Notes: generated by a model not told the origin, from the letters alone. Positions 7,867 to 49,826 are shown, numbered from the stretch's first letter. The stretch: 64,000 nt of DNA from Escherichia coli (GCF_048403405.1 NZ_CP183131.1); one strand, 5' to 3'. Made by a program: numbers and translations.

Positions 7867-8877
7867 TTAATCCGCTATATCGAGGCGTTGGCTCGCTCTC
7901 TTCAAACGCTCATCGCCGCGTCTGTCATATTTCTGGGTAGTTGCAATGCTTGAGTGGCCCATTGCGTCCTTCACGGTCACAATATCCTCACCGTTATCCA
8001 GCATCGAGGAGGCAAAGGTGCGTCGCAGGTCATGGGGCGCAAACATCTCCAGACCGGCTTCAACTCTTCTGGTCTCCAAGATGTGGTAGATGGCCTGATC
8101 CGACATCCGCTCTCCAGTCACATCATCAAACCGCCTGATCCTCGGGAATAAAGGCCCTTCATGCGTTCCTCGAACCTCTTCAACCCACTTATCCAGTCTT
8201 TTCCATGCGCCACCAGGCACATACGCCATTCTCTCTTTGTTGCCCTTGCCAAGAACCTTGAGAGCGCGGTCCTTGTAGATCATGCTTCCCATGTCCAGCG
8301 CAACGATTTCCGAGCGGCGCAAGCCACACCCGAGGAGCACCCCGAGAATGGCCGCATCCCGAAGCCCTTTGGCGCTTGAATCACTTTCACATGTGAAAAA
8401 GAGGCTGCGAATCTCATGGCGTTCAAGTGCCCGCCCTTTAGGAAGTCGAGATCCACGTACTGAACGGACTTGCTTAATGTGCTGGAAGCTATCCGTATCA
8501 ATTTGCTTCATCGTCCAGGCTTCAAGAGCCACCCCTTTGAGCGCTGACAGGTAGGTGTTGATCGTTGCCGGAGCCTTCCCTGCATCCCCCAGCATTTCCA
8601 GCACCGCCAATATGTGGTGCCGCCTCATTGAGCTCCATGCACAGTCACGAAGGTTCTGAAACCCGATCATCTTGGCGACAATGTTGAGGAATGAGCTCAT
8701 GGTCTGCCTGCTTCGCTTTGACCCGAGGCTCACCAGATAGGCGACGGCGGGGTTGTCCTGGATGTTCCGGAGCGAGCTCGATGACGGCAACAGTTCACCG
8801 CGAATGCTTTGTTCTGCCGGAACATTTACTTTCGCATGTGAAACTAGCTCTTCCTTGTCATTGTTTGTGTCGTGCAA
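7867..8877 (-). CDS. int: tyrosine recombinase / integrase
   Basis: C-terminal catalytic motifs HDLRRTFAS and GHSSIATTQKY. Confidence 0.88.
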   Translation of the reverse strand: MHDTNNDKEELVSHAKVNVPAEQSIRGELLPSSSSLRNIQDNPAVAYLVSLGSKRSRQTMSSFLNIVAKMIGFQNLRDCAWSSMRRHHILAVLEMLGDAGKAPATINTYLSALKGVALEAWTMKQIDTDSFQHIKQVRSVRGSRLPKGRALERHEIRSLFFTCESDSSAKGLRDAAILGVLLGCGLRRSEIVALDMGSMIYKDRALKVLGKGNKERMAYVPGGAWKRLDKWVEEVRGTHEGPLFPRIRRFDDVTGERMSDQAIYHILETRRVEAGLEMFAPHDLRRTFASSMLDNGEDIVTVKDAMGHSSIATTQKYDRRGDERLKRASQRLDIAD

Positions 8878-8879
8878 AG

Positions 8880-9416
8880 TTACCTCCTAAGCCCGACCGC
8901 AACGAGAAGAAAATCCCATATTTTGAGGTGAAGAGGTAGTTCCTCCTCCATATGTTGCGTTTCGTAGCTTTGCATCAGTGGTTCAAACTTGGTTGGATTG
9001 CACAGCAATTCGTAAACTGTTCGGTTGGGCTTGGTGATCGGCTTATTCGGAGTGAATCCATGTTTGTTCTGGAGGTACAGCGCTACCGCGCCACTTCTGG
9101 ATTCTCCGTAATAGCAATGAACGAAGATCTGATCGATACCGCTACCAACCAATCCATCCAGGAAGGTGGACAGCTTTTCAGCCTGGGATGAGTCAATGTA
9201 AGAGGCGTAATTCATCCGGAACGCTGCCTTCATCGTGTGGATGGTGTTCTCAGAATAGCCGCCGTCATAGAAGCTATCGCGGTACAACTGCCCCCACTGT
9301 CCGAGAGCGGCAGGGGACTTGTCTGGGTCAGTTATGGAGATCATGGCCGCACCGGGAACCGGCTCCAGTCTTTCGGCCTCCGCTTGACTAATGAAAAAGA
9401 CTTTTTTGCTAAGCAT
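8880..9416 (-). CDS. protein-tyrosine/dual-specificity phosphatase-like protein
   Basis: CX5R(S) P-loop signature VHCYYGESRSG. Confidence 0.6.
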   Translation of the reverse strand: MLSKKVFFISQAEAERLEPVPGAAMISITDPDKSPAALGQWGQLYRDSFYDGGYSENTIHTMKAAFRMNYASYIDSSQAEKLSTFLDGLVGSGIDQIFVHCYYGESRSGAVALYLQNKHGFTPNKPITKPNRTVYELLCNPTKFEPLMQSYETQHMEEELPLHLKIWDFLLVAVGLRR

Positions 9417-9696
9417 GTCCCATCATCCCCTTACAAGGATGTGTTGCGAGTAGCTCACGCGCCTGACTTTGCCCCTCTTGAGTATCTACAGGAGCGGTCG
9501 TATACACACCTCCATGCCGCAAGTCCACAATACTGGTCCGACAGCAAGAACCTACGTTCTGAACTTTATTGTCCGAATCCAAACCAGCAAAAGTATGGCA
9601 CGGTCCAGGGAATGGTTTCCTGCAAATAGAGCAGCGCTCAAAGTTCTTATCGAGGATTCTCTTTAAAACTTTCTCAAATTTGTTTTTGTTTAACAT
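9409..9696 (-). CDS. small Cys-rich (zinc-ribbon-like) protein
   Basis: CSIC..PGPC and SCC motifs. ATG at 9696 is preceded by GGAGAA. The 3' end overlaps the next gene. Confidence 0.55.
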   Translation of the reverse strand: MLNKNKFEKVLKRILDKNFERCSICRKPFPGPCHTFAGLDSDNKVQNVGSCCRTSIVDLRHGGVYTTAPVDTQEGQSQARELLATHPCKGMMGHA

Positions 9697-9714
9697 CGAG
9701 TTCTCCACACAAAG

Positions 9715-10035
9715 TTACTGGCCGAGCATCCCAGCCAAGGTGGTCTGCTGGCCTTCGCTACAAGGTGCAAATCCGGCAAAAGCACCGGCATTAACCTTGA
9801 GCTCATCAAAGCGTCCATCGGTGTCCCGGTAGTACACCTTACGTTTTCCAATTCCACCTTCGAGGTTTGCGGCCAACCAGGCGATCACTGCATCAGCATC
9901 GTTCGTAACTGATGCTCCCTGATCCAGATCGATAAGTACCAGGTGGGTGTCCGTCTGGAGTGCCACTTCAAAGGTCGCTCTTACATCAAAAATCACTGGT
10001 CGCGCTCCTTGTAAAAAGTGGGCATTCAGCACCAC
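9715..10035 (-). CDS. hypothetical protein (106 aa, GTG start)
   Basis: ORF with an AGGATAGG SD-like sequence upstream. Divergent from the palindromic operator at 10115. Confidence 0.5.
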   Translation of the reverse strand: MVLNAHFLQGARPVIFDVRATFEVALQTDTHLVLIDLDQGASVTNDADAVIAWLAANLEGGIGKRKVYYRDTDGRFDELKVNAGAFAGFAPCSEGQQTTLAGMLGQ

Positions 10036-10114
10036 CTATCCTATTCCAAAAACTCTACTTTTTCAAAGATACATTTTAATAAGTAGAACAACAGCAAGAG
10101 GAACTCAAATTTAT

Positions 10115-10141
10115 TTACCGTAATTATCATAATTACGGTAA
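10115..10141. promoter_or_regulatory. 27-bp perfect palindrome (operator candidate) plus extra half-site 10142-10150
   Basis: TTACCGTAATTAT-C-ATAATTACGGTAA followed by TACGGTAAT, in the divergent intergenic region. Confidence 0.6.
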
Positions 10142-48055: not shown

Positions 48056-48091
48056 AAGATGATTCAAATATAGCTCACCTTTGCTAAACAG

Positions 48092-48120
48092 AAAACGCTG
48101 TAACTGTCCATTTTGGGCAC
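48092..48120 (-). promoter_or_regulatory. AcaCD/SetCD-type activator box candidate (unit A / divergent promoter region)
   Basis: Sense GTGCCCAAAATGGACAGTTACAGCG. The -10-like TATATT lies 32 nt downstream. Confidence 0.45.
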
Positions 48121-48201
48121 TTCGAGAGGTCAGGTTACAGATTGACCGCATTTATCCTTTCCAGTGCGTTTATCTGTACCTCAAATTTAGGAGTATCTCT
48201 A

Positions 48202-48843
48202 ATGGCAGAAGCACAAGTAGCACTGGACACAAACAACGACCGCAGCAACCACTACTCTCGCCCTGTTTTCAAGCAAGTTCTGAAAGTAAACAGCCTCCAA
48301 GCTCAGCGCGTCATGGAACGCAGCTTTGAGCGAGTTTCCAACTCCCTGTTCTCCATCGACGTGATCCTTCGCATCATCGGTGAGCAGGACGAAATCGACC
48401 AGGTTGAAACCGTCATCCTGGAACACATTTCCAAGGTCTCCGAAGACCTGGACAAAGCTACCGCCCAGCTCAACAAGCTGATGGAAGACAACGGCATCGA
48501 CATGATGCCCGGCTACACCAACCCGAATGAATACACCATCGAGATCAACTCTCCTCAGGTTGCTCAGTTTGCACACCTGATCCGCAAACTGGATACCCTG
48601 ATGGGGATCGTTGACACTCTCTGGCTGAACACCGTACTGACCAGCAAGCAGCGCACCGACGCCACTTACCAATGGCAGCAACGCCTCATCAAGCTGGCCG
48701 GTCGAATCATCGGCATCGAGAAACGGGCTCGCATTTCCGCCCACAGCAAAGGCAAAGAAGGTGAAGTGGCCGAAGCCGCTCCGGAATCTGCAACCGGCGA
48801 CAAGGAAATCGCAGACGAAGCCGAGAAAACAAAAGCAGCATAA
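48202..48843 (+). CDS. hypothetical alpha-helical protein (213 aa)
   Basis: Start MAEAQVALD after AGGAG. Divergent from unit A and followed by a terminator. Confidence 0.65.
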   Translation: MAEAQVALDTNNDRSNHYSRPVFKQVLKVNSLQAQRVMERSFERVSNSLFSIDVILRIIGEQDEIDQVETVILEHISKVSEDLDKATAQLNKLMEDNGIDMMPGYTNPNEYTIEINSPQVAQFAHLIRKLDTLMGIVDTLWLNTVLTSKQRTDATYQWQQRLIKLAGRIIGIEKRARISAHSKGKEGEVAEAAPESATGDKEIADEAEKTKAA

Positions 48844-48859
48844 CCCAGCCCAAACCTTT

Positions 48860-48885
48860 GCCCCTCGCCCGAGGGGCTTTTTTTT
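48860..48885 (+). terminator. rho-independent terminator
   Basis: GCCCCTC-GCCC-GAGGGGC followed by T8. Confidence 0.85.
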
Positions 48886-48965
48886 GTCTTTTATGGTTGC
48901 ATTTTTTGATGCTGTGATATTATCGAAGTAAATCAGATTCAACTCAGGTAAGAACGGAGAACAAC

Positions 48966-49826
48966 ATGAAAAAGGCTTTAATCACCACCGTGGCTCTGGC
49001 TGTAGCAGCTCTATCTGGCTGTGCATCCACCAGCAGTTACGAACCCACAGCGTACAAAACCAATCACAGTCGCGCTTACAACATCGCGGAGGCCGGTGGC
49101 CTGGTAACAGGCATCCAAGACGCTTCTGTTCCGCGTGACAAGCTGGAGCGTCTGACCGACACCAAAACGTTTGGGGCAGCCTACGTGCTGTCTGGCTACA
49201 TGTCCCCTCAGCTCGGAATGACCGACTGGCAAGGTGGCTTGGTCAACCTTGCGAACTGGGCTATCGGCCCCAAACAGCATGGCGCTCGCAATAGCTTGAT
49301 CGCTTGGATGCCTGCTAACGAAGCAGTTTCACCGGCAGACGCTCAGGCCAAATTTCTTTCACATGTGAAAGTTTCCATTGAGTCAGCGCTGACTGATTTG
49401 GGTGCCAATTTCACGCTTCTGTATGACAAAGATGGTCGCCTAACCTATCAGTTCTACAAGAATGAATGGGGTTGCCCGACGTGGGTGAACGGACAAAGTA
49501 AGGTAGCTGACATGTGTTCCGTTAAGGTGAAAATCGTGGAGCCTCGCCTAGGGTCAGCTCCTAATTTTGTCTCTGGCGTTCAAGGTACAGCGTATGCCTT
49601 CACATCAGGCCATGAGACCGCATACAACTTTGTGAATGTCGGTAATGGGGCAGCAAGCCATGCTCCTCAGCAAGCGATCTACGCAGCTATTAGCAAACAG
49701 CTACCAGCTTGGGCCTACCTCTACCTTGCTCCAAAATCGGTTGAGCTGGATAATGGCGAAAAAGTTGCTTTCCCTTACCTTCTTGATCAGGGAAAAGCAG
49801 AGTTATTTGTTTACCCAGAAGCGTAA
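48966..49826 (+). CDS. lipoprotein (286 aa)
   Basis: Lipobox signal peptide MKKALITTVALAVAALSGC. Confidence 0.75.
   Translation: MKKALITTVALAVAALSGCASTSSYEPTAYKTNHSRAYNIAEAGGLVTGIQDASVPRDKLERLTDTKTFGAAYVLSGYMSPQLGMTDWQGGLVNLANWAIGPKQHGARNSLIAWMPANEAVSPADAQAKFLSHVKVSIESALTDLGANFTLLYDKDGRLTYQFYKNEWGCPTWVNGQSKVADMCSVKVKIVEPRLGSAPNFVSGVQGTAYAFTSGHETAYNFVNVGNGAASHAPQQAIYAAISKQLPAWAYLYLAPKSVELDNGEKVAFPYLLDQGKAELFVYPEA

Follow-up and report, generated by a model that had tools for sequence, protein, structure and literature searches.

A recurrent palindrome in a 64-kb stretch of Escherichia coli DNA very probably represents the known parS sites of IncC plasmids

The KorB operator OB of the IncP plasmid RK2/RP4 is a 13-bp palindrome, TTTAGC(C/G)GCTAAA, which occurs about 12 times per plasmid, and the chromosomal parS site TGTTNCACGTGAAACA (tGTTTCAC-GTGAAACa) is a 16-bp palindrome that is bound by Spo0J/ParB. 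A palindrome with likeness to both of them, TTTCACATGTGAAA, recurs in a stretch of 64,000 nucleotides of Escherichia coli DNA (GCF_048403405.1, NZ_CP183131.1), which is here called the window and to which all coordinates refer unless another record is named. A first-pass annotation, made from the sequence without knowledge of its origin, had read this motif as an operator of a global plasmid regulator or as a centromere-like site. A full-text literature search with the 14-mer yielded PMC10954446 (Nucleic Acids Res 2024) as the only match, where the same sequence is named as the fully conserved core of 14 inverted repeats in the IncC plasmid R55. The window motif is the already published IncA/C parS, so that the observation was correct but had already been explained. 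As this core has been reported for R55, the three exact window copies appear to be three of the known IncC parS sites, and very probably they serve the type I ParABS system of an IncC (IncA/C) conjugative plasmid.

The published repeats follow the consensus AAAC-core-GTTT, whereby the flanks are less conserved than the core, and four of the R55 repeats lie inside open reading frames (ORFs), one of which is xerC (PMC10954446). Purified ParB, which is encoded by the second gene of parAB053, shifted three 22-bp sites in electrophoretic mobility shift assays (EMSAs), namely the one upstream of eexC, that of the parA promoter, and DR2 of the genomic island SGI1; the shifts were reported to be unusually high, and binding was lost after insertion of 4 bp into the centre of the site (PMC10954446). 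The same study found that parS causes copy-number-dependent incompatibility and stabilises a mini-replicon in dependence on ParA and ParB, that 053 does not contribute to this parS-dependent stabilisation, and that PparA is repressed by ParB, whereby the site in the parA promoter follows the -10 element. SGI1 carries two parS mimics, which destabilise the plasmid and stabilise the island, again depending on ParA and ParB, and some parS sites were noted to be located close to AcaCD boxes (PMC10954446). The window sites share with the sites of parAB053 the core, the type of flanks, the plasmid family, and the copy number of 14; the published xerC copy is the one that lies in int of the window, and the window copies are listed there by homology, with no substantive difference from the parAB053 sites (PMC10954446).

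Among the major carriers of multidrug resistance are the IncC plasmids, whose stable inheritance is governed by parS, and SGI1 exploits parS in order to expel the plasmid. The present analysis extends this published system rather than revealing a new one. The binding of ParB to three other copies and the requirement of parS for incompatibility and for ParAB-dependent stabilisation come from the literature, and the copy number, the flank rules, the conservation at orthologous positions, and the co-variation with the par operon come from the analysis described here. The extensions, namely a deeply conserved core, its symmetric co-variation with a distant ParB, a tandem array in a relative, and candidate new island families with the site, may be of interest to specialists.

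In the window, the core occurs in three exact copies at 8385-8398, 33962-33975, and 49357-49370. The second copy is extended to a perfect palindrome of 18 bp, ACTTTCACATGTGAAAGT, at 33960-33977 and the third one to a palindrome of 16 bp at 49356-49371, both as first described, and the assignment of the sites to int, an intergenic region, and a lipoprotein gene was right in all cases. The one-mismatch copy TTTCGCATGTGAAA does exist near the 5' end of int, but its position is 8830-8843 and not 8829-8842. That the recurrence is not due to chance was borne out by 100 dinucleotide-preserving shuffles of the window, none of which contained any copy of the 14-bp core, and by an expectation of about 2e-4 exact cores per window under a mononucleotide model. 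When up to three mismatches were allowed, eight matches were found in the window compared to 3.9 expected, which is not clearly above chance. The two coding copies are translated into F-T-C-E in int and into L-S-H-V-K in the lipoprotein gene and thus lie in different frames, as had been claimed, whereas the additional argument that they are located on different strands is void, as the palindrome reads alike on both strands. In alignments of 114 bp around each of the four copies, no similarity was detected past about four flanking bases, and a larger repeat unit such as a miniature inverted-repeat transposable element, a repetitive extragenic palindrome, or an insertion sequence (IS) end was rejected on this ground.

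The copies in the window are part of a plasmid-wide set. Over a window stretch of 8 kb, there is 100% identity to hundreds of conjugative plasmids, whose hosts include Klebsiella, E. coli, Salmonella, Vibrio, and Aeromonas, and the best-matching complete record, NZ_CP129693.1 (172 kb), is typed as IncC, MOBH, and MPF_F. The window corresponds to about 39.6-106.4 kb of this record, with some IS differences, and by these matches it is IncC (IncA/C) plasmid backbone. A count over the whole plasmid and its relatives, which the first-pass annotation had proposed, gave 14 exact cores in NZ_CP129693.1, where 0.0005 are expected, together with the same one-mismatch copy, and likewise 14 exact cores in the IncA plasmid pRA1. 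All 14 cores of NZ_CP129693.1 are located in the backbone and none in a resistance island; ten are intergenic, and four lie in or overlap ORFs. Every copy has AC on its 5' side and/or GT on its 3' side (both in nine of them), and across all half-sites of this plasmid G is found at position +1 in 26/28 and T at position +2 in 24/28. One core is located 50 bp upstream of parA, directly after TACAAT. The operon of parA, the KorB-domain gene parB, and 053 occupies positions 131814-134105 of NZ_CP129693.1, outside the span of the window, and is also found in pRA1; a ParB with at least 99% identity is encoded in 1008 plasmid records. The flanks of the window copies are of the AAAC/GTTT type, with G and usually T on the 3' side of at least one end: AAAC/GTCG at 33962, TTTC/GTTT at 49357, and TCAC/AAGA at 8385. 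The site at 49357 is identical to the EMSA-positive parA-promoter site in 20 of 22 positions. With the exact core in three copies, the dispersed placement of multiple copies over the backbone, and the copy in the parA promoter, the set has the features of IncA/C parS.

Conservation at orthologous positions, with which the first reading had been said to stand or fall, was found in pRA1 and in pAsa4b of Aeromonas salmonicida. Each of the three window sites has a counterpart at the matching place of pRA1, and the int copy is identical there in 14/14 bases though the alignment around it is only 71% identical. In codon alignments, the int core is exact in IncC, in two IncA plasmids (pRA1 and L009, the latter IncA/IncFII), and in an A. 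salmonicida plasmid, at int nucleotide identities of 68-74%, and the int copy is kept in both L009 and L010. An int homologue with 75% nucleotide identity on a non-A/C Salmonella IncFIB plasmid shows one core mismatch (TAC for TTC), and more distant int homologues keep only the Cys-Glu/Asp part of the core. The core in the lipoprotein gene is exact in pRA1 (90% nucleotide identity of the gene) and in pAsa4b (72%); it is missing at that position in the 39%-identical homologue of pVPH2. The orthologue of the intergenic site at 33962 in pAsa4b has one core mismatch within a perfect palindrome of 34 bp. The cores of pAsa4b (L015:3901, 8685, and 20398) are flanked by AAAA/TTTT and not by AAAC/GTTT, and these three sites suggest that the flank specificity has shifted in the pAsa4 lineage.

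These data also bear on the question of whether codon coincidence or coding constraint alone could account for the motif. The Cys-Glu codons TGT GAA of int are conserved even in distant homologues, which would fit such an explanation. However, an exact core is confined to plasmids of the A/C and pAQU1-like lineages, the copies occur in different frames and in non-coding DNA, no shuffled sequence contained a copy, and there are 14 copies per plasmid where practically none is expected. Chance is thereby excluded, and coding constraint as the sole cause can be given next to no credence.

IncC ParB contains the Pfam domains ParB_N, KorB, and HTH_ParB, and its closest solved structure is that of RK2 KorB (8qa8, E 9e-21), whereby the alignment spans the GERRWRA box. 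ParA is a Walker-type ATPase, and 053 is a winged helix-turn-helix (wHTH) protein of 90 amino acids; a paralogy of 053 with the repressor Acr1, likewise a helix-turn-helix protein of 90 amino acids, was rejected, as no similarity was detectable between the two. In the proposed mechanism, dimers of the KorB-type ParB would recognise the 18-22-bp palindrome (AAAC)TTTCACATGTGAAA(GTTT) via their helix-turn-helix, with the approximately 14 sites that are dispersed over the backbone serving as loading sites. By analogy to RK2 KorB and other ParB proteins, ParB probably closes into cytidine triphosphate (CTP)-dependent clamps, or forms higher-order complexes, and slides or spreads from the site. The ParA ATPase would then move the ParB-DNA complexes apart so that each daughter cell inherits the plasmid. 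The copy just upstream of parA doubles as an autoregulatory operator, and genomic islands of the SGI1 type mimic the parS sites and thereby hijack the partition system. The first reading, i.e., operators of a global plasmid regulator or centromere-like sites, is supported by the published work (PMC10954446) and by the copies throughout the backbone, the copy upstream of parA, and the orthologous conservation.

Compared to OB of RK2/RP4, the IncC sites are alike in being bound by a ParB homologue with a KorB domain, in forming about a dozen dispersed palindromes, one of which controls the par operon, and in their TTT...AAA style. They differ in that the IncC core has 14 bp and 18-22 bp are needed, in their sequence, which does not conform to the OB consensus, and in that a KorA-type partner and long-range silencing are features of RK2, while two of the three window sites are located deep inside ORFs. 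By string comparison with the consensus, chromosomal parS shares the hexamers TTTCAC and GTGAAA and also has a binding protein with ParB_N and helix-turn-helix domains, but the IncC site is longer by two bases in its centre (TTTCAC-AT-GTGAAA), so that the half-sites are spaced differently, and has other flanks, and the window sites do not match that consensus either. DR1 and DR2 of SGI1 share the 22-bp inverted repeat and are bound by IncC ParB (PMC10954446), but they are located on a chromosomal island that parasitises the plasmid, whereas the window copies belong to the plasmid itself. The pentamers TGTGA and TCACA of CRP sites (TGTGA-N6-TCACA) are present in the core in the opposite, abutted order, as had been pointed out before; the resemblance is superficial and one of strings only, as inverted half-sites that abut without the 6-bp spacer have a geometry that is incompatible with CRP. 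Judged by these comparisons, the window sites would work like KorB operators and chromosomal parS, but belong to neither of them and are members of the IncA/C parS family.

Several points weigh against this assignment. The copies that were tested in EMSAs, i.e., the eexC-proximal site, the parA-promoter site, and DR2 of SGI1, are other than the three of the window, for which ParB binding in vivo would follow from sequence identity and conservation. In EMSA, ParB failed to bind the 14-mer without its flanks (PMC10954446), and G at +1 as well as T at +2 are nearly invariant, so that the functional unit exceeds 14 bp. With respect to this longer unit, the copy at 8385 is the weakest of the three, since it matches only 16/22 consensus bases and has the AC dinucleotide on one side only; its flanks read TCAC-core-AAGA (TCTT-core-GTGA on the opposite strand) and are consensus-like on one side only. 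The TGT GAA codons within this copy are kept in distant homologues for reasons of the protein. Its counterpart in pRA1 (L007 record 105534-105547) has a perfect core with neither an AC nor a GT flank, which is at odds with the negative EMSA of the bare core (PMC10954446). Either the flanks are less strictly required in vivo, or this core is preserved by something other than flank-dependent ParB binding. The par operon lies outside the window, and its carriage by the source plasmid is deduced from the matching complete plasmids. Finally, CTP-dependent clamping of IncC ParB is an assumption by analogy.

A second role, which is compatible with that of a centromere, would be that of KorB-style operators, from which sliding ParB silences or tunes int, the dcm operon, and the lipoprotein gene, perhaps together with 053 or a KorA/TrbA-like partner. 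We consider this possible, but rather doubtful. In its favour, a KorB domain is present in IncC ParB, whose nearest relative of solved structure is RK2 KorB. According to PMC11790492, KorB itself acts both in partition and in long-range silencing and does so as a CTP-dependent sliding clamp that is locked by KorA. The copy in the parA promoter follows the -10 element, and ParB represses PparA (PMC10954446). Moreover, 10/14 sites are intergenic, four other sites are located 20-80 bp from AcaCD-like boxes, the gene order parA-parB-wHTH is conserved down to 42% ParB identity, and the intergenic region at 33962 is more conserved than coding DNA. On the other hand, PparA is the only demonstrated regulatory target of IncC ParB, 053 did not add to parS-dependent stabilisation (PMC10954446), two of the three window sites are intragenic and distant from the start codons, the site at 33962 gave no hit for a sigma-70 consensus promoter, and no AcaCD-like box is present within 1 kb of any window site. 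Thus, an operator role of the KorB type is plausible for the whole system, but has no specific support in the case of the window copies.

The search for AcaCD boxes was carried out with a position weight matrix built from eight published sites (PMC4207636 Table 1), in which the box reads roughly TGCCCAAAWAGGGCA...CAG. It yielded eight boxes in the window with scores of 19-30 bits. An AcaCD operator at the palindromes was rejected, as no box lies within 1 kb of them and the GTGCCCC beside the site at 33962 does not fit TGCCC-N5-GGGCA. The boxes are located at 17878-17905, 25815-25842, 38448-38475, 48096-48128, 52718-52745, and 59756-59788, whereby those at 48.1 and 59.8 kb are overlapping divergent pairs. 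They likely represent AcaCD-activated promoters of transfer and recombination operons.

The intergenic site at 33962 was considered separately, since its 18-bp palindrome forms the centre of a longer imperfect palindrome. It is located 26 nt past the stop codon of the upstream gene and 151 nt ahead of the ATG at 33810. A promoter or terminator at this place was rejected, as searches of the region for a sigma-70-like promoter consensus and for a terminator consensus gave no hits. The palindrome might also act in the transcript, as a hairpin with a role in termination, processing, or stability. The RNA of 48 nt around 33962 folds at -21.2 kcal/mol (z = -4.8), and the site is preceded by a G+C-rich hairpin, with which the upstream gene ends. 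However, the two coding copies fold unremarkably (z = +1.0 and -1.0), and the extra stability at 33962 stems from site-specific outer arms and not from the shared core; furthermore, nothing resembling a terminator consensus was found, and the sites bind ParB as double-stranded DNA in EMSA (PMC10954446). An Rfam search of the whole window yielded no family match at gathering thresholds, the only hit being a meaningless miRNA hairpin (E 0.05) at 33939-33998. A hairpin in RNA as the common function was rejected, since only the context of 33962 folds unusually well, and an RNA-level element is highly improbable. In the surrounding region, 33820-34040 on the minus strand, the G+C-rich hairpin overlaps the upstream stop codon, two small inverted repeats, AGCAAGATTTTGCT and CTCTCTGTCGAGAG, are present, and the intergenic DNA is better conserved in pAsa4b than the neighbouring coding DNA.

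Core sites of tyrosine recombinases consist of two arms around a crossover spacer of 6-8 bp. Two copies of the motif lie inside int itself, one of them degenerate in IncC and both exact in IncA, where they are 445 bp apart, so that the palindromes might be core or binding sites of the Int/XerC-like recombinase. However, their half-sites abut and leave no crossover spacer, and recombination among fourteen dispersed sites would scramble the backbone, yet the positions in IncA and IncC correspond. In the elements from Vibrio, Halomonas, and Cupriavidus described below, the motif follows parAB and not int. A recombination site is therefore about the least likely of the functional alternatives, slightly below even the RNA element. 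The degenerate copy at 8830 departs from the exact core of IncA/C parS and has no place among the published IncC sites, whose core is fully conserved (PMC10954446). Its core is intact in IncA (pRA1 105089; L009), while one base deviates in IncC and two bases deviate in the A. salmonicida plasmid. It is probably a decayed or weak site, and it looks as if it were drifting rather than uniformly maintained. By its sequence, it happens to be a hybrid of the IncC half-site and that of the Halomonas variant TTTCGCATGCGAAA.

That the motif belongs to the par system is further suggested by its co-variation with the par operon, whose gene order parA-parB-wHTH was kept throughout, down to a ParB identity of 42%. 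Within 41 kb, the pAQU1-like Vibrio plasmid pVPH2 carries seven exact cores, each of them flanked by AC...G, at other positions. In a Vibrio penaeicida plasmid with a ParB of 56% identity, an exact core after TAGAAT ends 54 nt before parA. At a lower ParB identity of 42%, in a Halomonas plasmid, the place upstream of parA is taken by the symmetric variant TTTCGCATGCGAAA, which occurs twice in 41 kb; this is an apparent case of protein-site co-variation with a distant ParB. The two copies (L018:19000-19013 and 6767-6780) belong to plasmid pTHAF12_a of Halomonas sp. THAF12 and are located upstream of parA-parB-wHTH. In Edwardsiella anguillarum (NZ_VZOX01000017.1; L124:5064-5478), a 48-bp tandem repeat of 8.6 units, each with CTTTCACATGTGAAAC, which contains the core, replaces the single IncC parS position on a contig that encodes a RepA with 91% identity to that of IncC. 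By its structure, this repeat is a classical centromere-like array in a relative. Three exact 18-mers within about 700 bp of Cupriavidus pampae DNA (L112:4894-5602), about 1.3 kb from a ParB homologue of 33% identity, indicate that the same parS-type site appears to be used in a betaproteobacterial element.

On a wider scale, the 18-mer ACTTTCACATGTGAAAGT occurs in at least 120 stretches of contigs from one genome per species, mainly of marine Gammaproteobacteria, compared to about nine by chance (estimated as 596e9 / 4^18). Among the 120 matches listed, 68 loci have a homologue of the IncC backbone within 8 kb, including SGI1-like loci, in which the 18-mer abuts traN_S. A ParB homologue was found in only two of the 120 matches listed, whereby the 8-kb loci are too short to judge the presence of a par operon. 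In ten loci (L023, L024, L025, L037, L040, L042, L081, L090, L132, and L133), the 18-mer is located 130-670 bp from a distant MobI homologue (27-31%), in a conserved site context with few or no other IncC homologues nearby. Their hosts are Marinobacter, Idiomarina, Aliidiomarina, Oceanobacter, Halomonas ventosae, and related metagenome-assembled genomes (MAGs). These loci may represent another family of mobilisable islands with an A/C-type parS, beyond the SGI1 family. On four contigs of Heimdallarchaeota MAGs (L026, L083, L093, and L100), the 18-mer stands in one homologous context, ccgcggACTTTCACATGTGAAAGTccgc; the nearby gggatttgaacccgggtctgcgg is a tRNA 3' end as read by eye, and this 18-mer is presumably unrelated to ParB.

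Taken together, it might be that IncC ParB is a KorB-like silencer at a distance and that the 18-mer is a centromere currency beyond the described elements, a joint reading that we regard as more doubtful than probable. In its first part, the CTP clamp may load at each of the approximately 14 sites, also at those within int and the lipoprotein gene, and from there silence or tune backbone genes, whereby 053 or some other factor would serve as a KorA-like lock. In its second part, the site may be common to MOBH plasmids, to chromosomal islands of marine Gammaproteobacteria, and even to the Cupriavidus element. If such a shared currency existed, mimicking parS would be a strategy of mobilisable islands in general and not a peculiarity of SGI1.

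Table 1. Positions of the palindromic sites and of the genes that contain or flank them.
Feature	Position	Strand	Remarks
parS copy in int	8381..8402	.	core exact; codons 160-165 (T TTC ACA TGT GAA A = F-T-C-E)
Degenerate copy TTTCGCATGTGAAA in int	8826..8847 (core 8830-8843)	.	one mismatch; codons 12-16
Intergenic parS copy	33958..33979	.	AAAC-core-GTCG; 20/22 consensus match
parS copy in lipoprotein ORF	49353..49374	.	TTTC-core-GTTT; codons 131-135 (L-S-H-V-K)
int, tyrosine recombinase	7867..8877	-	Pfam Phage_integrase E 5e-30; called xerC/R55_130 in PMC10954446
Predicted lipoprotein, 286 aa	48966..49826	+	N-terminus MKKALITTVALAVAALSGC, lipobox LSGC
Two co-directional small ORFs flanking the intergenic site	33466-33810, 34002-34355	-	annotation of matching plasmid

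The positions of all sites and of their host genes are summarised in Table 1. No Pfam match was obtained for the lipoprotein ORF nor for the two small ORFs that flank the intergenic site. The pair of small ORFs (33466..34355) sits upstream of the gene for the dcm methyltransferase.

With regard to the origin of the stretch, a phage was rejected as source, since the backbone genes of the sole match in a phage collection, AB571791.1 (Salmonella Typhimurium, 127,710 bp), are those of the matching plasmids. Accessory differences from NZ_CP129693.1 were found at window positions 1-5000 and 28400-29700, and a 40-mer at window position 3000 is missing from that record. At the place of the differing window region, NZ_CP129693.1 is annotated with IS903B/IS110 elements and blaCTX-M-14.

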